The notes: a model not told the origin generated them from the sequence alone. DNA of 64,000 nt from an uncultured Actinomycetes bacterium (GCA_963841735.1 CAWJDT010000001.1:352001-416000), one strand, 5' to 3'. Counted from the stretch's first letter, positions 16,521-33,723 are shown. Made by a program: numbers and translations.

Positions 16521-17026
16521 TCAGGACCTGCCAGAGGTCTCGACGGCCGGCCTCGCCTGCCTGGTGTGTCTCCTCAGAGCTAGTGTCTCAAGCAGGGATC
16601 GCTCGATCACCTCCGGCGAAGGTGGGCAGCCCCGGATACGGAGAGCGACCGGCAACACGTCCTCGAGCGGTCCCGCCAGTTCGCTGGGAGCCCCCAGCAC
16701 CCCACATCCGCATGCGCAGTCCCCCAGCGCGACCACCAGCCGCGGCTCGGGCATGGCGTCGTAGGCCGTGCGAAGGGGCACGACCATTCGCGTGGTGATG
16801 GCGCCCGTCACCAGCAGGACGTCGGCGTGCCGAGGCGAGGCGACCACGTTGAGGCCGTGACGCCCCAGGTCGTAGTGCGGACCCGACCCGGCGCCCAGCT
16901 CGTGCTCGCAGCCATTGCACGAGCCGGCGTCCACGTGACGCACGGCGAGCGACCCCGGCCGCTTGGATGACGGCAGCAGCTGATCTGGCGCCGGAGTCTG
17001 CGCAGTTCGTTAAGCAGGACGAACAC
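16521..17026 (-). CDS. Ehr/hydrogenase-4 small subunit (NuoB/HycG/HyfI-like), frameshift near 16960
   Basis: GSCNGCE, ASPRHADVLLVTG, GDCA, GCPP; 5' part (MFVLLNELRRLRR) is in another frame. Confidence 0.85.
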
Positions 17027-17035
17027 GGTGCCCCC

Positions 17036-18520
17036 TCAACGGTCGCAACAGGAGTAACAGAGCTCGAAGCTCTTGTTGATAAGGGGAAAGTCGGGCAGGA
17101 TCTCCCCGGCCGCCGCCCTGGCCAGCGCGGGCCAGTTGGCGTAGGAAGCCGGTGCGGAGGTGAAGACGCGTGACGCGGTCGTCGGCGGCTTCCAGGATGC
17201 AGACCGTTTCTCCGCGCGGACTCTCGACGCTCGCCACACCCACGGGTTCGGCCGACACCCGCGACAGTGCCCTGCCGGCTCCACGCCCTCCGCCAGCAGC
17301 TCGTCCAACAAGCCGAGGGTCACCTCCAGTTCCATGGCCCGCACGTCCATGCGACCGGCGACGTCGCCGGTCGCGGGACTGGGCACGGCAGGCGAGAAGT
17401 CCCGATAGCTCAGACGCGGACTGTCGACCCTCGCGTCCAGAGCCACACCCGCCGCGCGCGCCGCCGGCCCGACGACACCCAGCTGGGCGCACTTCGTCCG
17501 GGGAGATAACACCAACACCGACGAAACGGTCCTGAACCGAAGCGTTGAACAGCACCTCGTGCCAGGCCCTGCGGGCGTCATCTCTCAACGCGCGCAGTTC
17601 TTGGCGGGCCTCCGCCACAGCAACGCGGTCGATCTGCCATTTGCTGCCCCCCACGGCGATGGTGTCGAAGAGAAACCGGTGCCCGGTGAGAGATCCGGTT
17701 GAGGCGCTGGGCGCGCTCTTTGAGCGCGGCAAAGGCCATGTTGCCCGGCTGCGAAGCCCACGCCGGCGCAGACGGCGCCGATGTCGTTGAGATGGTTGTA
17801 GAGACGCTCCAGTTCGAGCAGTATCGTGCGAACACGAGCCAGTCCGGGCTCGGGCCACAGACCCAGAAGCGACTCCGCGGCGTGCGCATAGGCCACCGAG
17901 TTGCTCACGGCGCAGGCGGCGCAGGCGCGCTGCGCATAGACCAGGCCTTCCGCGAGGGTGCGGCCTTCGGCGGCACGCTCCAGGCCTCGGTGCTTGTAGA
18001 ACAGACGCAGGTCGATGTGGAGGATCTTCTCGCCCACCACGTGGAAGCGGAAGTGGCCCGATTCGATCACCCCCGCGTGGATGGGACCGACCGCCACCTG
18101 GAAGGCGTCGTGACCAGAGACCGGCACCGTCCATGAGGACAGTCCGCTCGTATGCTCGACCAGCGGCCGCAGAGGCACGTGGCCGGAGAAGCCGCAGGCC
18201 GTAGAGGTCCTTGGCTTCTCGCTCATCCCAGCCCGCGGCAGGCGCCAGGTCGACGATGCTCGGGCACCTCGCCGTCCGGCGCGGCTGCCGCCAGCAGGAT
18301 CGGACCCTCCGGGTCTGGCGAACAGCGCCCGCACTCCACGCCCAGCCGGCATCACCGCGCTACCCGGAGTATTTTCGTCCACCCCGTAAAGCGCAAGAAA
18401 GCGCCCCGTGCCAGCCAAGACGGCTGCGCAGCGCTCTGGCCAGTCGGCGAGCGTGATCTGGTCGATCTGCAGCCCGACAGGCCGCTGTTCGGGCATGGGC
18501 GTCACATTCTCGGCACTCAC
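17036..18520 (-). CDS. Ehr/group 4 [NiFe]-hydrogenase large subunit (HycE/HyfG-like), several frameshifts
   Basis: VGPIHAGVIESGHFRF, LFYKHRGLE, RACAAC, LELERLYNHL, ESPRGE, DFPLINKSFELCYSCCDR*, spread over three frames. Confidence 0.85.
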
Positions 18521-19998
18521 GGCAGACCTCCAGCCAAGGTGTGGACAAGGTCCGACCCGGGCAGCACCAGTGTCAGCGCCGCGAGAGCAACCAGCAGAAC
18601 CGCGGCCGCGATGCTGAGCACACCCACCCCGCGTCCACCGGCCAAGCCGTCGCGACGCGGGCGGCGGCTCGAACCAAGAAGATCCTGCACCAACACGTGG
18701 GCAAGGCCCAGGAAGCCGAACGCAAGCAGCAACGCGGCGACCGCTGCGCTGACCGTGTGGCCGGAGGTGAACCCACCCATGAGTATAAGCACCTCGCTAA
18801 AGAAGAGCGGCGACGGCGGCAGGCCGCTGAGCGAGCCCAGGCTCAGGCCCATGCCCGCCACGAGAGCGGGATTCTCCCCCAGCAGGCCACGCGGCCGGGT
18901 ACCGCCGCGCCGAGGGTCGCAGGTCGAAGAGCGGCGTAGCCGCGTAGAAGCCCAGAGACTTGGCTACCGCGTGCCCGCCCAGATGCAGGACGACGCCGGC
19001 GATGGCCAGCGAGTTGCCGAACCCGATGCCGAGTGCGATCACTCCCATGTGTTCCAGGCTGGAATAGGCCAGTAGTCGTTTCCAGGCCAAGAGGCCGCCA
19101 CAAGAACGGGCACGGCCACCGCCAAGGGATGCCAGGCCGAACGCCAGAAACACGCCGTGGCCGACACGGACTCCCACTGCCGGCACCAACGCCTGTTCGG
19201 TCCGCCAGGCGATGAGCATGACTGTCGGTAGGAGCGCCGCTGAGAGCAGAGCCGAGATGGGCGGCGGTGCTTCGCTGTGGGCATCCGGAAGCCAGTTGTG
19301 CACCGGAGCCCAGCCGATCTTGGTGGCCAAGACCGCAGAACAGAAGCAGAAAGCCGCCCAACGTGGCCGCGTGTGGCATCGCCGAAGCCGAGGCGGCGAG
19401 ACCGCGCCAAGATAGCCCGGCCATGCCCGACGCTGCGCTCGGGGAGCGCGACGTACAGCACCACCACGCCAAGCAGCGCCACGGTCAGACCCGCCGTGGT
19501 GAGGATCAAGTACTTCCACCCGGCTTCGAGAGCCCGGGGGCGACCGCTGTAGGCCACAAGGAGAGCTGAGACCGCCGGTGGTGGCCTCGATGACGATCCA
19601 GGCGACTCCCAGATTGCCGGCAAGCGGAATGGCCAGCAGCGCCGCCCAGAAGATGTGAGAAGCAGAGGTAGTACGAGGCTCGAGCGCGCGATGGCCGGAA
19701 GAAACTACGGTGACCGGTGCTCAGATAGGCAGGTGATACCAGGGCGCTGCACAAACCCACGAACGCGATGACGGCCGAGAAAGGGCGCGCCGAGCGTATC
19801 CAAGACGACCCAGTCGCTGCCGCCAACCTTGTCTGCGCCGACGACTGCGAGGACGGCGGCCCCGAAAGCTGCGGCTGCCGTGAGCGCCGCCGTAACGCGA
19901 TTTATCCAGTCCTGACTGCGCGCCGTGGGGGCGACTTGTATCAGAGCCCCGCCTAACAGCGGAAGGGCGGGAACGATGAGAGCATAGTATGCGGGCAT
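18517..19998 (-). CDS. hyfF: Hydrogenase-4 subunit F-like antiporter-type membrane subunit, frameshifted
   Basis: ALEAGWKYL, TKIGWAPVHNWLPDAHSEAP, KRLLAYSSLEHMG, GLPPSPLFFSE across frames. Confidence 0.8.
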
Positions 19999-19999
19999 G

Positions 20000-20617
20000 T
20001 CAATCACGCAGACCCCGCAAAACCGCGGTATCTCCGGTGCCGAACTCGCCGAAGATGCGCTTGTGAAAAGCCACCGCTACAGTGATCACCATGACAAGAT
20101 CGAAAGCCACCCCAAGCTCGATCACAAGCGGCAGACCTCCGGGAACCACCACCGCAACAAGGGCCACAGCGTTTTCGGCGACGATGAGACCCAACAGGTG
20201 GAAGATGGTCTGGCGGCGTACGACGATCGTGGCGATACCGATCGTGAGCAGACCCACGCCGGCCTGCTCGGCCGCCGGAGAGGCGAGACCGAAGGGGGGC
20301 GCAAGCATGACTACGACGAACACCGCTGCCACGACCAAGCCTAGGCGCATGAGCGGTTTCATCCGCGAACGCAGCGGGCGTGGCTCACGGGTACGGCTGA
20401 CGCTGTAGGCCAGCAGCCCACAGAGAGGCAGCGCACGGACGAAAAGGGCCAGGCTCGCGATCAGAAACTCCGTCGAGCGTCCGTGAGAGAGCACCAGCGC
20501 GTACACCCCGAGCAGCAGGGTTTGGAGGGCGACCAGCGCGATGGCCGTCGCCCGGCGACGAGTGCTCACAACCAGCAGTCCGAGAGCCACCATCCCCCAA
20601 CTGAGCGCCTCAGTCAT
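20000..20617 (-). CDS. hyfE: Hydrogenase-4 subunit E-like membrane protein
   Basis: ENAV, PLVIELGVAFD, DTAVLRGLRD C-terminus; operon position. Confidence 0.8.
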   Translation of the reverse strand: MTEALSWGMVALGLLVVSTRRRATAIALVALQTLLLGVYALVLSHGRSTEFLIASLALFVRALPLCGLLAYSVSRTREPRPLRSRMKPLMRLGLVVAAVFVVVMLAPPFGLASPAAEQAGVGLLTIGIATIVVRRQTIFHLLGLIVAENAVALVAVVVPGGLPLVIELGVAFDLVMVITVAVAFHKRIFGEFGTGDTAVLRGLRD

Positions 20618-21543
20618 AGTTGGCCGCCGATCAGCCAACTGAGCAGCCCCAGGAAACAGAGGCCCATGCCGACCACCAGCAGTCGCGGCACCCGCAGCAG
20701 CCGCATCTTAGCCTGCCACGACTCCACCACCGCCAGCACTGCGCACAGGATCGGCAGCCCGACCGCCAGGACGACCATCCGCCACACAAAACCGACAGGA
20801 TGAGGCGCGAACAGCTCGAGGGCCAACACGAGCATGATCCAATGCTTGGCAGCCGCGGCCCACTGCAGGTAGGCCAGATCCCGCCCGGCGTATTCCAGCA
20901 GCGGGCCCTCGTGGATCATGGTGAGCTCAAGATGAGTGTCGGGGTTGTCCACTGGTTGACGCCCGGTCTCGGCGATCACCACGAGGGCGAAGGCCGCTGC
21001 CGCAAGCCAGTGAGTCGGCAGGCTCCAGATGTGCGCCCCCGCCGCGGCGTCGCTCAAGGAGCGCAGATCGGTGCTGCCAAAAGGCAGCGCCGCCAACATC
21101 AGCACAAACAACAGCAGTCCCTCCACCGCGACGCCGATTGTGAGATCACGGCTGGAGCCCATGAGCGCAAAGCCGCTCCCTGTATCCCAGGAAGCCATGG
21201 CCAGAGCAAAGCGGGCCAGCGCGAGCATCCCGACCAGCAGCAGGGCATCGTGGCCCACAGGCCAGGCGAGGGAGTGTCCACCAATCGGGACCAGGAGCAG
21301 CGAGACGGCCAGACCGGCCGCGACCACCGGCGGTGCCAGACGATAGAGCACAGTGCCGCCCTCAGGGTCGACGGCGCTCCGCGACCAAAGACGGGCGAGC
21401 TCCCGGTAGGGCTGCAACGGTGACGGTCCCCGCCGTCCCTGAAGCCTCGCTTTGAAACTCTGCGTCAGACCGGGCAGCAGGGGAGCAAGGGCGACCCCCC
21501 CAACCACCTGCACAGCGCCGGCCACTATGTCGGCGGCGCTCAT
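20614..21543 (-). CDS. hyfC: NuoH/HycD/HyfC-like membrane subunit
   Basis: KARLQGRRGPSPLQPY, GSSR, AETGRQPVDNP.THLELTMIHE. Confidence 0.88.
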   Translation of the reverse strand: MSAADIVAGAVQVVGGVALAPLLPGLTQSFKARLQGRRGPSPLQPYRELARLWSRSAVDPEGGTVLYRLAPPVVAAGLAVSLLLVPIGGHSLAWPVGHDALLLVGMLALARFALAMASWDTGSGFALMGSSRDLTIGVAVEGLLLFVLMLAALPFGSTDLRSLSDAAAGAHIWSLPTHWLAAAAFALVVIAETGRQPVDNPDTHLELTMIHEGPLLEYAGRDLAYLQWAAAAKHWIMLVLALELFAPHPVGFVWRMVVLAVGLPILCAVLAVVESWQAKMRLLRVPRLLVVGMGLCFLGLLSWLIGGQL

Positions 21544-21568
21544 ATGCACCGCCCGCATCCCTGGGGTC

Positions 21569-23607
21569 TCATCTCACACCCCACAGCCAGGCCGCCGCGA
21601 GCGCGACGATGACCAGTAGCAGCAGATAGGCCATGTAGGCCCGGATGCTGCCCGACTGCAGACGCCGGGCATAGGACGCGGCGGCGAGAGCCCAGCGCAC
21701 CACCGGACGGTAGAGCTTCGTGTCAAAGAGGTGCGGCACCGATCCGCTGTAGGTGAGGCGCTGCACAACGCCATTCTCCCTTTCGAGGGTGACGGTCCGC
21801 TCCGGTCGAAGCACCGCCTCCAACACCAAGCGCAGCGGTTTGGTGAATCCGGCCGAGGTCCAGTTCAGAGCCGGTTCGACCCGCTGCCCGCAGGTCCAGA
21901 CGGGAGCCGTAGCCGCCCGCCGCTTGCCCCGCATTAGCACCAGCAGAGCGACCAGGGCCACTAGGATCAGCCCAAGTCCCAGAGTGGGCAACCCGCCCGT
22001 TCCCGTTAGCGGCACACCCACCTTCCACGGCAGCACCGAGGCACCCACCCCCGAGAACACGCCGGCCGCCGCCTCGCCGCCGGGAGCGAGCCTGGCCAGG
22101 GAGGGCAACAGAAGTCCGGGGAGCAGGCCCAGTACCACGCAGAGCGCGGCCAACGTAGTTGTCGCAACCATCATGGGCATGGACACCTCGCGAGCGGCCT
22201 CACAGGCCGGGCGTCGCGGAGGGCCCAGAAGCACGAGCCCGACCACTTTGGCGAAGCAGAACACGGCCAAGGCCGCGGTCATCGCCAGCGCGACCGTCGC
22301 TACCGCGCCCACGATGGCCGGTCCCCAAGTGGCCCCCTGCGCCGCGCCGGCACCGGCAGCGCTCAGCCCGGCCGCCCCCGTGCCAGTCACCACGTGCACC
22401 AGTGCCTGAAGCGTGAGCCATTCGGAGACAAATCCATTCAGAGGCGGCAGACCTGCGATGGCCATGGAGCCAATCAAGAAGGCCCCGCCCGTCCAGGGCA
22501 TCCGACGCAGCAGCCCGCCCAGGCGGTCGAGTTCCAGCCCATGTACTGCCTTGTCGATCGATCCGGCGCTGAGGAAGAGAAGGCCCTTGAACACGGCGTG
22601 ATTGAGGACGTGCAGCAAGGCGGCGGCAAATGCCAGTGCCGCCCAAGCGGGTTGGCCCAGCCGTCTGGAAGAGAAGCGAAGCGCCCAGCCCGAGCACGAT
22701 GATGCCGATGTTCTCGATGGAGTGAAAGGCGAGCAGTCGCTTGAGTTCGTGCTGGAAGAGCGCATAGACGACGCCTCCCAGCGACGAGAGCGCACCCAGG
22801 CCCAGAAGCACCAGGGCCAGCCACACCGGCGTCCCGCCCAGCCACTCGAAGAGCACCCGGATCAAGCCGTAGAGGGCCACCTTGATCATCATGCCCGACA
22901 TCAACGCCGAGATGTGGCTGGGAGCCAGCGGATGGGCCCTGGGCAACCAGCTGTGAAGAGGCATTATGCCCTGCCTTGGCGCCGAAACCCACGATGGCCG
23001 CGAGCCCGATGAACACCTGTAGAGGCGCGCCTATGCCTTGGAGGGCCGTGGGATCACCAAGCACGCCGTGGCCGGCCAGCAGCAGAAGCGACACCCATAC
23101 CCCGACGCCGCCGAGGTGCGTGATGGCGAGATACTCGAACACCGAGCGGCGGGCGTCCGTGTCACGCCGCACGACCAATATGGCCCCAGCCGGCAGCAGC
23201 GTCATGAGTTCCCAGAAAGTCAGAAACGAGGGAGCCGAGCGCGCCGTGAGCACCCCGACCATGGCCAGGAGAAAACCCGCCGTGAGCGCCCCGATCACGG
23301 TGGCGCGGCGAATGCCACGGAGATAGCCCATCGCATAGACCAGCGCGGGCACGCCAGAGACGGCAAGAGCGGCCAAGAAGAATCCGGTCAGCGGGTCGAC
23401 GCCGAACGTCAGTTCCGGGCCACTGCCGAAGGGCGACCCAGCTGTAGTTCTACCCAGAAGGGCGACGAGCCCACCTGCGCCGATCGTGGCAAGACCCGCG
23501 ACCTGTAGCCCCAGGCCCCAAGTCAGCAGCGCCCGCCCCAGGCACAGCGCACCTCCCGCCGCGACCGCGATGGCCCCGGCGACTATGAACCAGGCGACCA
23601 GACTCAC
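21569..23607 (-). CDS. hyfB: Hydrogenase-4 subunit B-like (NuoL/HycC) membrane subunit, frameshifted
   Basis: FLTFWELM, PLHSWLPRAHP.APSHISALMSG, KRLLAFHSIEN, NHAVFKGLLF, GLPPLNGFVSEW across three frames. Confidence 0.85.
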
Positions 23608-23978
23608 GAAATACTGTTCGCTTCTTGGTCGGAAGCGGGTGGGGGCTCGGGTATTGAAAGCTCCTCGAGCAGAGCGCGGGTCTCTGACAGGCCGGAGAGA
23701 ATGACCTGGCGAGCGGTCTCGAGCATCTGGAACATGAGGGGGTCCCGAACCGAGTACCGGACGGTCGTGCCCACCTTGCGGCCTTCGACGATGCCCTGCT
23801 GCCGCAGCGCCGCCAGATGCTGCGAGGTGCCGCTGGAGTCAAGTTGGAGCTCCACCTGCAGCTCACCCACCGTCATGTCGCCGTCCCTCAACAGCTCGAG
23901 AATGCGCACCCGGGCCGGGTGACCCAATACACGGAAGAAGTCCGCCTTCACCGTGTGTATGGGCAGTTGACTGTTCAA
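23604..23978 (-). CDS. ArsR/SmtB family transcriptional regulator
   Basis: KADFFRVLGHPARVRILELL, SQHLAALR; overlaps the hyfB start. Confidence 0.9.
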   Translation of the reverse strand: MNSQLPIHTVKADFFRVLGHPARVRILELLRDGDMTVGELQVELQLDSSGTSQHLAALRQQGIVEGRKVGTTVRYSVRDPLMFQMLETARQVILSGLSETRALLEELSIPEPPPASDQEANSIS

Positions 23979-24040: not shown

Positions 24041-24202
24041 ACCAGCCTTTAAGTCTACGAGCAAGGCGCGAGCCATACTTGGCGCAAAGACAACGACTAT
24101 GTTTCCGTGCGCCCCAAGATGGATAGAGTCTTGGCTGTAGCGACAGGCGCCCCAGAGCCTTGGTCGACCGGCAGCGGAAGAGCAGGAGGTGCTGGACAAG
24201 CA

Positions 24203-24868
24203 ATGAGCGCTAACGATGCCAGACCGACGATCTCCGCGGAAGCCAGACTGCATGGGTTCGAGCAAGCGCTTCTGGAAATGGACCGCGCTAAAACCCAGCG
24301 AGTTGTTGCAGCCGCGCGAGACACGCTATCCGCGGACCGCATCGTGGAGGATCTGATAGTCCCCGCTCTTGAGAGCATGGGGCACGAGTGGGAGTCAGGC
24401 CGGCTGGCCCTCTCCCAGATCTACATGGGCGGGCGCATCTGCGAAGAACTGGTAGACGCTCTGATGCCACCGGCCAGCCCCCAGCGCAAGAACCAACCGC
24501 ATATGGCGATCGCCGTGCTGGAGGATCACCATCTGCTGGGCAAGCGCATCGTCTATTCTCTGCTGAGGGCTGGCGGGTATGACTTGCTCGACTATGGAAA
24601 CGTTGATGCCGCCTCCCTGATGCACCAGACCCAGCGCGACCAGATCGAGGTCCTGCTCATCTCTACGCTCATGTTGCCCTCCGCGCTGCGTATCGGGGGG
24701 GTGAGCCTCGGTTTGAGGAGCGCCGGATGGACCGGAAAGATAGTGGTGGGCGGCGCGCCGTTCCGCTTCGACGATCAGCTCTGGCGAGAGGTAGGCGCAG
24801 ATGCGACCAGCGCCACCGCATCCGGCCTCATATCACTCCTAGCCCAATTCGGAGTTGAGGCCGCATGA
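24203..24868 (+). CDS. Corrinoid (B12)-binding protein, MtaC/MttC-like
   Basis: Cap domain (PALESMGHEWE.G), DxHxxG motif DHHLLG, ISTLM, VVGGAP; AGGAGG RBS. Confidence 0.88.
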   Translation: MSANDARPTISAEARLHGFEQALLEMDRAKTQRVVAAARDTLSADRIVEDLIVPALESMGHEWESGRLALSQIYMGGRICEELVDALMPPASPQRKNQPHMAIAVLEDHHLLGKRIVYSLLRAGGYDLLDYGNVDAASLMHQTQRDQIEVLLISTLMLPSALRIGGVSLGLRSAGWTGKIVVGGAPFRFDDQLWREVGADATSATASGLISLLAQFGVEAA

Positions 24869-25926
24869 AGACCACGGCCATGACGTCAATGCAACGAACA
24901 CTGACCACCCTGGGTCATCAGGAGCCGGACAGGGTGCCGCTTTTCCTACTGCTTTCCCTACACGGGGCCAAGGAGCTGGGACTCTCCATCAAAGACTACT
25001 TTGCCCGGCCCGAATACGTCGCCGAAGGTCAAATCCGGCTCCGAGCAAAGTACGGCAATGACTGTCTCGACGCTTTCTTCTATGCACCCATCGAGGTGGA
25101 AGTTTGGGGGGGTGAGGTGTTGTACCGCGAGGACGGACCTCCCAACTCGGGCGAGCCGTTTCTCCGCCGGCCAGAGGACATCCTGGAACTCACGGTGCCT
25201 CGAGTGGCTGAGTCGCCCTGCCTGCTCAAGGTCATACAGGCCATCGAGATGATGAAGGTCCGCGGCGGTGACGAGATCCCCATCATCGGCGTGGTCATGT
25301 CGCCATTCTCCCTGCCGGTGATGCAGCTTGGCTTCGACCATTACTTGGACGTGCTCTATGAACGGAAGGACCTCTTCGCCCGTCTGCTGCGGGTCAACGA
25401 GGAGTTCTGCGTCGAGTGGGCCAACGCTCAGCTGACAGCGGGGGCTACGGCCATCTGCTATTTCGACCCTGTTTCCTCCCCGAGCATCATCCCCCGCGAG
25501 CTTTTCCTCAAAACCGGCTACCTCATCGCCAAGCAGACGATTTCTCGCATCGCCGGCCCGACGGCCGGTCACCTGGCCTCAGGCACATGTCTGCCCATCT
25601 TGGACGCCCTCGCACAAACGGGGATGGCCGCGGTGGGGGTGAGCGCGTCGGAGGATCTTGCGGAACTCAAGGCAGCGGCAGCGGGCAAGATCACTCTACT
25701 CGGCAACCTGAACGGCATCGAGATGCGGCGCTGGACCCCGGACCAAACCGAAGCCGCAGTCAAGCAGGCCATCGCGAAAGCAGGGGCCGATGGAGGCTTC
25801 ATTCTGTCGGACAACCACGGCGAGATCCCGTGGCAGGTCCCAGACGAGGTCTTGTTGAACATCTCGGAAGCCGTGGAGCATTGGGGGCAGTACCCGCTTC
25901 GCTGGACGCGGGCCTATGCAGACTGA
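24865..25926 (+). CDS. MtaA/CmuA-like (UroD superfamily) methyltransferase-2 homolog
   Basis: EPDRVP, SPFSLP, FDPVSS, LLGNLNG, GGFILS; overlaps the corrinoid gene stop. Confidence 0.85.
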   Translation: MKTTAMTSMQRTLTTLGHQEPDRVPLFLLLSLHGAKELGLSIKDYFARPEYVAEGQIRLRAKYGNDCLDAFFYAPIEVEVWGGEVLYREDGPPNSGEPFLRRPEDILELTVPRVAESPCLLKVIQAIEMMKVRGGDEIPIIGVVMSPFSLPVMQLGFDHYLDVLYERKDLFARLLRVNEEFCVEWANAQLTAGATAICYFDPVSSPSIIPRELFLKTGYLIAKQTISRIAGPTAGHLASGTCLPILDALAQTGMAAVGVSASEDLAELKAAAAGKITLLGNLNGIEMRRWTPDQTEAAVKQAIAKAGADGGFILSDNHGEIPWQVPDEVLLNISEAVEHWGQYPLRWTRAYAD

Positions 25927-27190
25927 GCTTGTCTTCCTTGTCTGCGAGAACCTCGAACAGGAAGCACGGGCCGTCACGGAGATAGAGCATTGGGAGAACG
26001 TCGAGGTGTTGACGTGCCCTGCACTCTGCACAGACCCCCAGGACCACTCCAGGACCGCCCGGGAGATCGAGGCCGCGAGTAGCCAACATCCTGAGCACTG
26101 CCTGGTGGTCGGCTGTGGAGGGCTGCGGGAGTTGGCCGGCAGCGGACATGAAGGACCGCCGCGCGGCAGAGTGGCCATGGCTTCCTGCTTCGAGTTGGTG
26201 GTGGGGCCCCATCTTGCGGCAGGCTGGATGCAGGACGGCGCCCTTCTCCTTACCCCTGGGTGGCTGGAGCATTGGCCGGAATATGTCCGGGTCTGGGGAT
26301 TCGACCAAGCCACCGCGAAGGAGTTCTTCGCCGAATCCGCTTCCCGCTTGGTCCTGCTCGATACCGGAGTGCGGCTTGAGAGCGCCCGGTGCCTGGCCGA
26401 GTTTGCCTCGTTCGTGGGCCGCCCTGCCGAGACCGTCCCGGTGGGGTTGGACTACTTCCGCCTTAACCTGGCCCAAATGCTTCTTTCCTCGCAACTTGAT
26501 GAGCAACGAGCGACACACACCTCCGCTCTGGCCGACTCCCAGCGGAAGCTTGCGGACTACGCCATGTCCTACGATCTGGTGGGCAGCTTGGCAGGGATGA
26601 AGTCGGAAGACCGGGTGGTCGAAGCGATATTCGAGTTGTTCGCTATGTTGTTCGCTCCCGCGGGCCTGGTCTATATTCCGATGGTCGGAGGCAAGGCGAG
26701 GCCCACACGCTTCATGCCCGAACGGCTGGCAACAGACCCCAGCGCCACAACCGGACTGGCCGAGCTGCGCGAGGAGTACGCTTGGACCGATTCGGGCCAA
26801 GGCTTCGTACTACGCCTGGGAGAACCAGAGGCGGTGTTGGGTATCCTCAAGGTGGAAGGCATCGCGTTCCCGCAGTACATCCAGCACTACCTGAACCTGG
26901 GCCTGAACCTGGCCCGGGTTTGCGCCCTGGCACTACGCAATGCCCGCGTATATGGGGAACTGCAATCCACTATCGGCCAGCTTCAGGAAGCCCTGACCAG
27001 TATCAAGACCTTGTCAGGACTCCTACCCATATGCGCCGGATGCAAGAAGATCCGTGACGACAATGGCTTCTGGACGCAGGTTGAATCATATGTGAGCAAG
27101 CGCACCTCGGCCACCTTCAGCCATGGTCTTTGCCCTGACTGCCTGGCTAAGTACTATCCAGAGTTGGCGGACGAGACGGAGACGGCATGA
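25916..27190 (+). CDS. DUF1638-like domain + GAF-like region + coiled coil + C-terminal Cys4 domain (putative sensor)
   Basis: LLTPGWLEHW...WGFD, LVLLDTG; C-terminal LLPICAGCKKIRDDNGFW...SHGLCPDC, typical of signalling proteins. Confidence 0.75.
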   Translation: MQTELVFLVCENLEQEARAVTEIEHWENVEVLTCPALCTDPQDHSRTAREIEAASSQHPEHCLVVGCGGLRELAGSGHEGPPRGRVAMASCFELVVGPHLAAGWMQDGALLLTPGWLEHWPEYVRVWGFDQATAKEFFAESASRLVLLDTGVRLESARCLAEFASFVGRPAETVPVGLDYFRLNLAQMLLSSQLDEQRATHTSALADSQRKLADYAMSYDLVGSLAGMKSEDRVVEAIFELFAMLFAPAGLVYIPMVGGKARPTRFMPERLATDPSATTGLAELREEYAWTDSGQGFVLRLGEPEAVLGILKVEGIAFPQYIQHYLNLGLNLARVCALALRNARVYGELQSTIGQLQEALTSIKTLSGLLPICAGCKKIRDDNGFWTQVESYVSKRTSATFSHGLCPDCLAKYYPELADETETA

Positions 27191-27281: not shown

Positions 27282-27878
27282 CTAGCCGCGGGCCCGCTCC
27301 AACAGCACCATCATCATAAGGCTCAAAAAGGCTCTCTTCTCATCCTCTGGGCTCAGCTCAGCGTGCTTCTCTATCTTGAACTTACCCTCAAACAACGCCG
27401 GCTGCTTCTGCATCCTCAAGACCATCCGGCCGTCCGTGGACGAGACAGTGTAGGCCGGATGAAACATGTAGCCCGAGAACATCCCGATTATCGGCAATCC
27501 TCCTACCAGGCTGTCCCAAACCTTCACCCAGGGCTTCTCTTCCCGAATGAGCATCTTGAGGCTCTCGCCCTCATACACATCGTAATGCGCCTTCCAGAGA
27601 GACTTCTTCCCCTCACGCTTGACCGAACCGACCGTCTGTCCCAACTGATCAACGAAGGTGTACCGCGGCGACCAGTCAATTATCTTGTCCGCTTTGATGT
27701 TGAAAGCCGGCCGCGTCTTCTTCTCATCCTCGAACACGGTCACGTCTTCCCTGAGCTTGAACAGTTTCTGCTTGATGTAGCCGACCAGGTTGCCGTTGGC
27801 ATCGCGGACCGCCAGTTGGGGAGACATCGCCACGATCTTGAAGGATAGGGTCAAGGGGAAACTAAGCGGGAACTGCAT
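27282..27878 (-). CDS. LURP-one/scramblase-like protein
   Basis: YIKQKLFKLREDV, IKADKIIDWS; AAGGAG RBS before MQFPL. Confidence 0.75.
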   Translation of the reverse strand: MQFPLSFPLTLSFKIVAMSPQLAVRDANGNLVGYIKQKLFKLREDVTVFEDEKKTRPAFNIKADKIIDWSPRYTFVDQLGQTVGSVKREGKKSLWKAHYDVYEGESLKMLIREEKPWVKVWDSLVGGLPIIGMFSGYMFHPAYTVSSTDGRMVLRMQKQPALFEGKFKIEKHAELSPEDEKRAFLSLMMMVLLERARG

Positions 27879-27966
27879 TCTTGTCTCCTTGGTCGTCGCC
27901 TGTTGTTTGATTCTACCGGATTGCCTGTTCGCTTTGGGCCGCCTTATGGGCCGCCTGTTGCGCCGC

Positions 27967-28281
27967 CTATCCGTAAGAACAGCAGTAGTCCGCCGGCCCC
28001 TTGAGCACCAGTTTGAAAGACGAGTCCGCAGGCACCTCAAAGGACTGACCGGCCGCGAAGGTCTGCCAGTCTTTCGTATCGGGCAGGAGCACATGCATTT
28101 CGCCGCCCAGGATCTCCATCACCTCACGAGATTCGGTGCCAAATTCGTATTCCCCGGGCATCATGAAGCCGAGGGTCTTGTGCGTGCCATCGGCGAACAG
28201 GACGGTGCGGCTGCTGACTTTGCCGTCGAAATAGACGTTGGCTTTCTTGACGATCGTGACGTTGGCGAAATTGTCTGACAT
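27967..28281 (-). CDS. ppnP: Pyrimidine/purine nucleoside phosphorylase (DUF1255)
   Basis: [33 protein letters not shown]. Confidence 0.9.
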
Positions 28282-33183: not shown

Positions 33184-33723
33184 ATGCGATCCATATGCCG
33201 CATTATTCTGCTGGCTGCTGCCATCGTACTGGCGTGTGCCACGCTGTTCGGTTGCGGTGGTGGAGACGGTCAGAGCGACCTCAGTGTGGCGACGACCGTG
33301 CAGGACGAGAGTGCCGGAACGGACTCAACCCAGAACGGGGCACAGACTGGGGCACAGGCCGAGACGGAGGTCGCCGGCATGCCCGCCGAGTTCCCAGCCG
33401 ATGTCCCGGTCCACCCGGGCACTGTGACCGCATACGACCCCATGGTAGTGACCGAGTCCACGACCGTCCATCAGCTCACGGTCGAATCGGTGGCTTCATT
33501 CGATAACGTCATCGAGTGGTACAAGACGCAGCTTCCCGCGGGCTGGTCGGTAGGGTTTCTCGAGGAGTCCGGCGACGGCGGCAGTCGCGAGGGCAAGGTC
33601 GCCCTCAACGGCGGCAACTACGCACCCGCTAGTTCGAGCGGATTGGGCGGCGGCGTGCTCATCGGCGTATTCGAGGGAGACAAGACGGAGATCGTCGTCA
33701 CAGTCACCGCGATGGCGCCGTAG
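33184..33723 (+). CDS. Lipoprotein of unknown function
   Basis: Lipobox LFGC; P.EFP.DVPV.PG and V.EWYK..L...GW motifs. Confidence 0.75.
   Translation: MRSICRIILLAAAIVLACATLFGCGGGDGQSDLSVATTVQDESAGTDSTQNGAQTGAQAETEVAGMPAEFPADVPVHPGTVTAYDPMVVTESTTVHQLTVESVASFDNVIEWYKTQLPAGWSVGFLEESGDGGSREGKVALNGGNYAPASSSGLGGGVLIGVFEGDKTEIVVTVTAMAP

Follow-up and report, generated by a model that had tools for sequence, protein, structure and literature searches.

A conserved cassette of a corrinoid protein, a URO-D-like enzyme and a DUF1638-GAF sensor as a candidate input module for bacterial signalling

We analysed a 64,000-nucleotide (nt) stretch of DNA, here called the window, from an uncultured Actinomycetes bacterium (GCA_963841735.1, CAWJDT010000001.1:352001-416000). 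At 24203..27190 it carries three genes head to tail on the + strand, which encode a corrinoid protein (P0001), a URO-D-like enzyme (P0002) and a sensor (P0003). The trio is found in the same order in 71 of 80 related loci, and the N-terminal module of the sensor, a DUF1638 domain followed by a GAF domain (345 residues), stays constant while the attached outputs vary. We consider it probable that the trio represents a self-contained input module, based on a corrinoid and methyl transfer, that feeds one- and two-component signalling. The genes and the parts of the sensor are:

24203..24868, + strand: corrinoid (B12-binding) protein P0001, ATG start, 221 amino acids (aa); Pfam B12-binding_2 and B12-binding
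24865..25926, + strand: URO-D/MtaA-like TIM-barrel enzyme P0002, 353 aa; Pfam URO-D
25916..27190, + strand: sensor P0003, overlapping the enzyme gene by 11 nt
25916..26503, + strand: DUF1638 domain, sensor residues 1-196; Pfam PF07796, two-lobed alpha/beta, with conserved Cys10, Cys38 and Cys91
26522..26950, + strand: family-specific GAF domain, sensor residues 203-345, reached via a long helix (179-226); assigned from a model and a fold match
26951..27019, + strand: putative helical/coiled-coil linker, sensor residues 346-368, extending the last GAF helix (319-344)
27020..27151, + strand: Cys/His tail, sensor residues 369-412, LPICxxCKKIRDDxGxWxxxExY...FSHGxCPxC; no named family

The start codon of P0002 overlaps the stop codon of P0001 (ATGA). 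An alternative GTG start at 24107 is possible for P0001 and would add 32 residues to give a protein of 253 aa; the alignment of its orthologues starts near the ATG form. A first-pass annotation of the window had described three overlapping genes, a corrinoid protein with an intact DxHxxG motif, an MtaA/UroD-like protein lacking the zinc/thiol-activating site, and a third protein that joins a DUF1638-like domain to a GAF-like region and a CxxC...HxxCxxC tail and has no kinase or cyclase domain. Our analyses bear out this description in each of these points. The annotation had also suggested a survey of gene neighbourhoods for trios with swapped outputs, and the outcome of this survey is positive, as outlined below.

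A search of ~5.8 billion proteins with the sensor, using precomputed Pfam domain calls with boundaries checked by alignment, returned full-length look-alikes down to ~35% identity. The same N-terminal 345 residues precede HisKA/HATPase_c, GGDEF, SpoIIE or HD-GYP domains in other proteins (P0042 and P0078 for the SpoIIE and HD-GYP forms). An alignment of the 345-residue module, used to scan contigs of a single genome for each species, gave 109 relatives, from which 80 loci were kept. These loci span well over ten phyla, with carriers, judged by name, among the Poribacteria, Verrucomicrobia, Thermodesulfobacteriota, Chloroflexota, Acidobacteria, Gamma-, Beta- and Alphaproteobacteria, Riflebacteria, Actinomycetota, Cloacimonadaceae, Bacteroidetes, Spirochaetota, Synergistetes, Clostridia, Myxococcota, Nitrospirae and Hydrogenedentes. 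According to phmmer over all open reading frames (ORFs), 73 of the 80 loci encode a homologue of the corrinoid protein and 75 encode one of the URO-D-like enzyme, and the 71 loci mentioned above have the corrinoid protein, enzyme and sensor genes in this order on one strand. Five of the nine exceptions are cut by a contig end (L025, L027, L075, L091, L099). Locus L023 has the enzyme only, with no corrinoid protein found upstream by tblastn; in L028 and L098 the corrinoid protein directly precedes the sensor and there is no enzyme, and L036 has neither partner within 7 kb. In the 46 loci measured, the URO-D stop codon and the start of the sensor gene are separated by a median of -1.5 nt, and in 44 of them by at most 22 nt. 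All-against-all clustering of the ORFs from the 80 loci revealed no other conserved neighbour, the next real family occurring in 6 loci; no second methyltransferase, activator or transporter therefore travels with the trio.

An exhaustive profile search returned 1069 representatives of the module family (50% clustering) at E <= 1e-30; among the 150 matches listed, the module is located at or within ~35 residues of the N-terminus, in proteins with lengths of 359-1479. Close to the window's own genome the distribution is sparse: a full-length sensor is present in two of 40 related genomes (G010 and G023), and the cassette is thus patchy and accessory. Among these 40 genomes, an enzyme of the P0002 clade (>380 bits) was found in G023 alone, where it adjoins the sensor; G010 is 70% complete and contains masked bases.

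We compared the outputs attached to the module. Seven of the 80 sensors were left out of the Pfam scan (L046 and L048 because of their size, and the five cut ones). Among the 73 scanned, 52 carry HATPase_c, many of them with HisKA, REC, Hpt or PAS, 7 carry GGDEF and 14 have no Pfam output domain; the Cys/His tail is found in 12 of the 80. Most of the sensors are complete kinases or cyclases, 600-1480 aa in length. A quick maximum-likelihood tree built from the module requires at least 13 changes of output label, and its well-supported branches alone force at least three origins of the GGDEF form; the remaining branches are poorly resolved. Two sensors, from a Geobacter sp. metagenome-assembled genome (MAG) and a Geomonas sp. 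(L063 and L077; 430-453 aa), end in a coiled coil of ~80 residues with no output domain and no tail, and they adjoin a GGDEF-type relative (L088) on the tree. An Anaerolineales MAG (L066, 2223-8779) encodes a corrinoid protein, the enzyme and a sensor kinase, followed by a second corrinoid protein and a second DUF1638-GAF sensor kinase.

The only Pfam match in P0003 is DUF1638, which covers residues 47-182 and scores 35.8 bits (cut-off 27), a model that 69 of 73 related sensors match at E <= 1e-5. No NCBIfam model matches P0003, and a sequence search of the PDB gave no match at E <= 10. HisKA, HATPase_c and GGDEF are absent at E <= 0.1, and for the C-terminal 234 and 76 residues no such match was found at E <= 10. 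A structural model of residues 1-345 (predicted local distance difference test score, pLDDT, 91.8) has a two-lobed alpha/beta DUF1638 domain, a long helix (residues 179-226) and a GAF domain. Although no Pfam GAF model matches this last region, residues 206-345 superimpose on the GAF domain of PDE5A (3mf0) with a VIA-align Z-score of 15.2 and a root-mean-square deviation of 2.1 over 133 aligned residues. Z-scores of 13.7 follow for 4y2f and 3p01, and 13.7 is also the value for the KdpD GAF domain; each of the best 25 rows is a GAF domain or a sensor domain closely resembling one. The region that had been called GAF-like is thus predicted to have a true GAF fold.

The DUF1638 domain modelled alone has a pLDDT of 89.6. 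Fold searches with this model found generic two-lobed alpha/beta likeness only, the top VIA Z-score of 8.6 being in a range that the tool rates as common; Foldseek returned LacI/periplasmic-binding-like folds (E ~4e-4, template modelling (TM) score ~0.4), with PrpR and CbiK lower. As the structural neighbours are generic, we dropped the fold as a functional lead. Among 77 sequences of the sensor clade, Cys10 is conserved in 76, Cys38 in 75 and Cys91 in 72. In the model they come after strands 1 and 2 and the short strand at 85-87, which would place them near each other on one edge of the domain, as is usual in such folds. The metabolic DUF1638 paralogue of the same genome retains Cys91 only; Cys10 and Cys38 are extra conserved residues of the sensor domain in comparison with this one paralogue, the relatives L105 and L106 having been left out.

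In the window protein, the GAF domain is followed by the linker and by the tail, with a heptad-like sequence kept ahead of every tail. The tail motif, C373xxC376...H403xxC406xxC409, lies in the last 55 residues of P0003 and has no Pfam or NCBIfam match; the tails of its relatives match zinc-finger models at chance level only (E 0.14-9), and we found no description of the motif in the literature searched. Similar tails, 60-67% identical, form the C-termini of REC, PAS, GAF, HAMP, MASE3 and MASE6 proteins, and the tail also occurs as stand-alone proteins of 75-95 aa. Because of this spread over varied proteins and of the stand-alone forms, the tail is probably a portable output or partner-binding module. 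The invariance of its five Cys/His residues is partly circular, as the sequences were picked by that very pattern; Pro371, Ile372, Arg380, Trp386, Tyr392, Phe401 and Gly404 are conserved independently of the selection. Its four cysteines make zinc binding likely. The idea that the tail is of an anti-sigma (ZAS) or DksA type was dropped, since no Pfam zinc-finger model matches. Three proteins (P0085, P0086 and P0094) contain two copies of the motif, for example as REC-tail-REC-tail, and the tail can thus also be internal and repeated. The genome's only other tail-bearing ORF (P0124, G000:C1:1621571-1623416) encodes a protein of 257 aa with a PAS-like N-terminus, a helix and a tail that is 33% identical. 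Its gene precedes, by 440 nt, another corrinoid protein gene and four CoA-transferase genes, and both tail proteins of this genome thus adjoin corrinoid protein genes.

The corrinoid protein P0001 matches Pfam B12-binding_2 (3e-11) and B12-binding (4.3e-10). Its DxHxxG motif reads DHHLLG, and Asp108, His110 and Gly113 of this motif, Ser154 of the SxL motif and Gly183-Gly184 are invariant across 72 orthologues. The protein is thus predicted to retain a base-off/His-on B12 site. Its nearest NCBIfam models are methyltransferase-cognate corrinoid proteins (TIGR02370, 1.4e-15, 57.2 bits against a cut-off of 215.3), and all named equivalogs that it matches score far under their cut-offs; by these scores, the family appears to be a clade apart from the named corrinoid-protein subfamilies. 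According to passages of PMC11796333, the CarH-type cobalamin domain is marked by GxxW, EH, GxxH and GxxxP, with EH marking light-responsive adenosylcobalamin binders. P0001 contains the GxxW of cobalamin caps; the EH position is occupied by VY, and across the family Tyr74 and Met75 are near-invariant, with a consensus Val at position 73. We found no MerR DNA-binding domain with Pfam, and the CarH model NF052513 gives a weak match only (9.5e-7, 28.4 bits against a cut-off of 400).

The enzyme P0002 covers nearly the whole Pfam URO-D profile (PF01208; profile positions 1-345 of 346, E 1.8e-48, 165.8 bits). Among NCBIfam models it is closer to MtaA/CmuA (3.6e-29) than to HemE (1.2e-11), and it scores 102.1 bits against TIGR01463 (cut-off 235.4) and 85.1 bits against NF040654 (cut-off 400). 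In the PDB, MtaA (4ay7) is matched with 1.5e-12 and true uroporphyrinogen decarboxylases with 9.2e-12. In MtaA, a His-x-Cys motif and a C-terminal Cys presumably ligate the zinc ion and activate the thiol acceptor. The LHICG segment of 4ay7 aligns with GHLASG in P0002, so that His-Leu-Ala stands in place of His-Ile-Cys. The MtaA Cys position is an Ala in 72 of 73 members of the enzyme family, and no invariant Cys column is found among them, indicating by alignment that the zinc-thiolate site, with which MtaA methylates coenzyme M, is missing from the entire clade, not from P0002 alone. The 73 members share a near-invariant C-terminal motif, Asp316-x-His318-Gly-Glu-Ile-Pro. P0002 has a median identity of 62% to 72 orthologues, compared with 30-44% for the sensor, and the mean column identity is 69% for the enzyme, 50% for the corrinoid protein and 42% for the sensor. 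Such high constraint is expected for a catalytic core with several partners. The first-pass annotation had called P0002 an atypical methyltransferase 2 (MT2). This label appears doubtful, because the enzyme lacks the thiol-activating site that defines an MtaA-type MT2, and a substrate:corrinoid (MT1-like) methyltransferase seems equally possible.

The link between enzyme and sensor is also seen in fused proteins. P0266 joins a URO-D-like domain to DUF1638, GAF and HisKA/HATPase, with all 343 module columns aligned (E 9e-71); it may be a read-through artefact at overlapping genes, although it represents two sequences on four contigs. In P0264 and P0265, which lack DUF1638, a URO-D-like domain (58% and 54% identical to P0002, respectively) is followed by the family's GAF domain and a histidine kinase; P0264 aligns with module columns 206-343 (probability 99.4). 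Corrinoid protein and URO-D-like enzyme are fused in P0267 and P0269, and the enzyme part of P0267 is 60% identical to P0002.

The same genome encodes a paralogous set at G000:C1:1429702-1434351. Its middle gene codes for a 669-aa protein in which DUF1638 follows a URO-D-like domain distinct from P0002; the gene of a corrinoid protein (209 aa) precedes it, and that of a pterin-binding methyltransferase fragment comes after it. The set lies among genes for formate-tetrahydrofolate ligase and FolD, for a protein with the C-terminal domain of MTHFR and for a GntR regulator, and contains no signalling domain. Judged by this gene content, the set appears to be an ordinary metabolic version of the trio. 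A further pair of long URO-D-like genes, encoding 464 and 423 aa, is located at G000:C1:175088-185731, one beside a GcvT-like folate-binding protein and the other in convergent orientation to genes for a corrinoid protein and a GntR/UTRA regulator; they probably encode further metabolic demethylases.

We propose that the corrinoid protein and the URO-D-like enzyme would together form the receptor input. The enzyme would alter the cobalamin bound to the corrinoid protein, most likely through methyl transfer to or from the cobalt, which would cycle between Co(I)/Co(II) and methyl-Co(III) as set by a small-molecule methyl donor or acceptor and by the redox state of the cell. The sensor would dock on this pair through DUF1638 and the family-specific GAF domain, and the state would be relayed via the signalling helix to the attached output, in relatives mostly a histidine kinase or a diguanylate cyclase. 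In the window protein, the output would be a dimer-forming helix with a Cys4/His module, probably zinc-binding, that may act on some partner. A reading of the cobalt methylation or oxidation state is suggested because the corrinoid protein has the signature of methyl transfer rather than of a photoreceptor, because the enzyme is the most conserved of the three parts, and because the only known link of DUF1638 outside the cassette, according to passages of PMC5764234 and PMC12478193, is to B12-dependent methyl transfer. The signalling proposal of the first-pass annotation is partly supported. The trio is conserved and the outputs are swapped, and we saw neither of the two outcomes that the annotation named as refuting, a trio that is not conserved or one that works as an ordinary metabolic methyltransferase independent of the third gene. 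The methylation state, the redox state, a methyl donor, B12 itself and light are all candidates for what is sensed, the tail is a putative zinc-binding effector, and the MT2 label is doubtful.

Several observations weigh against the proposed input module. The case for methyl transfer by the enzyme is one of family resemblance, and here the matches to the MtaA/CmuA models stay under their cut-offs and the PDB similarity to uroporphyrinogen decarboxylases is about equal to that to MtaA. No single part is strictly required beside the sensor, since the enzyme is missing from L028 and L098, the corrinoid protein from L023 and both from L036, and DUF1638 is itself dispensable in the fused forms P0264 and P0265. 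The proposal presumes contact among the three proteins, and a three-chain complex prediction (corrinoid protein, enzyme and sensor module) scored 0.13 against a mark of 0.32 in a run without controls, which speaks neither for nor against such contact. The patchy distribution fits an accessory function and is silent on mechanism. Finally, a metabolic role with a fused regulator may be considered, because RamA-like and pterin-binding genes exist elsewhere in the genome.

Spelled out, this metabolic alternative would have a corrinoid methyltransferase work with its corrinoid protein, DUF1638 act as a B12-upkeep factor fused to a regulatory GAF/output, and the methyl group pass to tetrahydrofolate via a methyltransferase encoded elsewhere. 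We regard it as unlikely, even though the same genome has a DUF1638-URO-D fusion beside a corrinoid protein and a pterin-binding methyltransferase as well as two RamA-like activators, and the enzyme is under very strong constraint. Passages of two reports also fit it, in which the B12-dependent synthesis of methionine by P. inhibens requires DUF1638 (PMC5764234) and a DUF1638 protein of R. pomeroyi is a predicted cobalamin-recharging factor (PMC12478193). However, the trio conserves no second methyltransferase, activator or transporter in the 80 loci, whereas the genome's own metabolic cluster and, in passages of bioRxiv 10.1101/2021.08.30.458270, the mec cassette do carry such genes. The enzyme can moreover be fused directly to a GAF-histidine kinase, and sensors that are mostly kinases or cyclases of the size given above are unlike an accessory factor. 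In the window itself, a Pfam scan of 17 neighbouring ORFs (13.9-34.2 kb; 3 of them without a Pfam match) reveals neither another methyltransferase nor an activator of the RACo/RamA type, in line with the earlier remark that no MT1 or activator is nearby. This argument is weak on its own, because the two RamA-like genes are located on the same contig, ~0.9-1.1 Mb from the trio.

It is also rather improbable that the cassette senses cobalamin supply or light, with the corrinoid protein as the receptor, as in CarH/AerR, and the enzyme re-methylating the cofactor to reset it. Such a reset role would explain an enzyme without a second methyltransferase, B12-binding proteins built from the same two domains do sense light or B12 with partner regulators (CarH; passages of PMC11796333), and some carriers are phototrophs or light-exposed (Viridilinea). 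The weak CarH match of P0001 points the same way, but the EH signature is absent, Tyr74 and Met75 being near-invariant in its region, and the best matches are methyltransferase-cognate corrinoid proteins. An Rfam scan of the window matched no family, and hence no B12 riboswitch. For the light version in particular, many carriers are by name sediment or groundwater anaerobes (Desulfobacterales, Syntrophaceae, Geomonas, Cloacimonadaceae). In a more radical form of the proposed mechanism, which we hold to be distinctly improbable, the enzyme, having lost its own zinc-thiolate site, would use the methyl-cobalamin of the corrinoid protein to methylate a sensor cysteine (Cys10, Cys38 or Cys91, perhaps metal-held) and thereby switch the GAF-output portion, an Ada-like covalent switch. 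Less radically, the sensor may directly detect whether the cobalt of the corrinoid protein is in the Co(I), Co(II) or methyl-Co(III) state. Very improbable, in our view, is that the enzyme is no methyltransferase at all and acts like a decarboxylase on a corrinoid or porphyrin precursor, the cassette monitoring tetrapyrrole metabolism. The near-equal PDB similarities, the resemblance of the C-terminal D-x-H-G motif to the G-H-G of decarboxylases and a weak match of the DUF1638 model to the cobalt chelatase CbiK (Foldseek E 7.9e-3, TM 0.39/0.32) would agree with this. Yet the NCBIfam scores are nearer to MtaA/CmuA than to HemE, pairing and sometimes fusion with a His-on corrinoid protein is a hallmark of methyl-transfer pairs, and the chelatase match lies within chance fold resemblance.

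We compared the trio to known systems. Like MtaABC, MtmBC/MtbA, the O-demethylases and MtgABC, it combines a corrinoid protein (four-helix cap and Rossmann B12 domain with DxHxxG) with a TIM barrel of the URO-D/MtaA family. Unlike these three-component systems, it has one methyltransferase-like gene, with no activator or second methyltransferase in the window or the 80 loci; its enzymes lack the MtaA zinc ligands, and its third gene encodes a signalling protein with exchangeable outputs. A second methyltransferase and an activator accompanying the pair, a feature of metabolic operons, are thus absent from the trio and present in the genome's other cluster. CarH/LitR and AerR/PpaA resemble the trio in using a B12-binding protein as the receptor of a regulatory system, whereas the trio lacks the DNA-binding domain and the EH signature and has a dedicated enzyme and a DUF1638-GAF transducer. 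H-NOX (haem NO-binding) proteins are encoded beside histidine kinases or diguanylate cyclases. The likeness is in logic only, a stand-alone cofactor protein with a signalling enzyme that varies between species; the cofactor, the folds and the docking domain differ, and an enzyme is added here. In Ada-type regulators and in the zinc-thiolate chemistry of MtaA and MetE, a Cys thiolate is the methyl acceptor, a possible parallel for the cysteine triad of the sensor, to which we found no sequence or fold relation. Among DUF1638 proteins, PGA1_c13340 of P. inhibens and SPO2162 of R. pomeroyi likewise belong to PF07796 and adjoin a B12-binding protein gene, according to passages of PMC5764234 and PMC12478193; the former is cofit with a split methionine synthase and a RamA-like activator (PMC5764234). 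As described there, these proteins stand alone and are tied to B12 reactivation, whereas here DUF1638 forms the N-terminus of a GAF-output protein. We rejected the mec dichloromethane cassette as a relative, as in passages of bioRxiv 10.1101/2021.08.30.458270 its kinase uses PocR and the cassette has MtrH-type and RACo genes.

In the literature searched, which did not cover subscription-only papers, we found no mention of DUF1638/PF07796 in signalling or of such an input module, and the broader sensor and corrinoid literature returned metabolic or photoreceptor papers only. By their profile scores, the parts of the cassette appear to belong to known superfamilies, with none reaching the curated cut-off of a named subfamily. 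The novelty would lie in a new input to one- or two-component signalling that is coupled through accessory proteins; the mechanism could prove categorically new. The cassette would couple cobalamin chemistry (methyl supply, very low redox potential, B12) to phosphorelays and cyclic di-GMP in many phyla. DUF1638, known only via its genetic link to B12-dependent methionine synthesis, gains a testable role as a candidate corrinoid-protein partner. The survey also defines a sharply conserved clade of URO-D-like enzymes free of the zinc site and exposes a widespread, unnamed Cys/His C-terminal module after REC, PAS, GAF and HAMP domains, which is probably an output domain. If the cobalt state is indeed read directly, the system would be the first receptor of cobalt redox state or of a methyl donor in two-component signalling; cysteine methylation, if true, would represent a covalent switch that depends on cobalamin and acts on kinases, on cyclases and on the Cys/His tail. 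The question can be assayed directly with kinase-type orthologues from cultured strains of Geomonas, Desulfatitalea alkaliphila and Dethiosulfatarculus sandiegensis (L094, L048 and L045, respectively).

The surroundings of the trio in the window include one regulator gene, a neighbour that we do not count as a cassette member:

23604..23978, - strand: ArsR-family helix-turn-helix regulator, divergent from the trio; Pfam HTH_5, 5.5e-13

The other neighbouring genes are likewise unrelated to the trio. Downstream of it, Pfam assigns a TauE exporter, a CAAX protease, an AAA ATPase and a SpoU methylase, next to an ORF without an assigned family. Two ORFs, 27282-28094 (- strand, 270 aa) and 33184-33723 (+ strand, 179 aa), have a coding-like codon bias and no Pfam match. 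Upstream and on the opposite strand lies a membrane NADH-dehydrogenase/hydrogenase-like gene set (17010-23607, - strand). It resembles hydrogenase-4 or Mrp and comprises a NuoH-like gene, two Proton_antipo_M pieces, a NuoK-like gene and a weak match to a 49-kDa subunit. Its ORFs overlap or appear fragmented, with 21569-22795 and 22474-23607 sharing ~320 nt, and the plus-strand AT skew of this region is strong (0.27-0.31).

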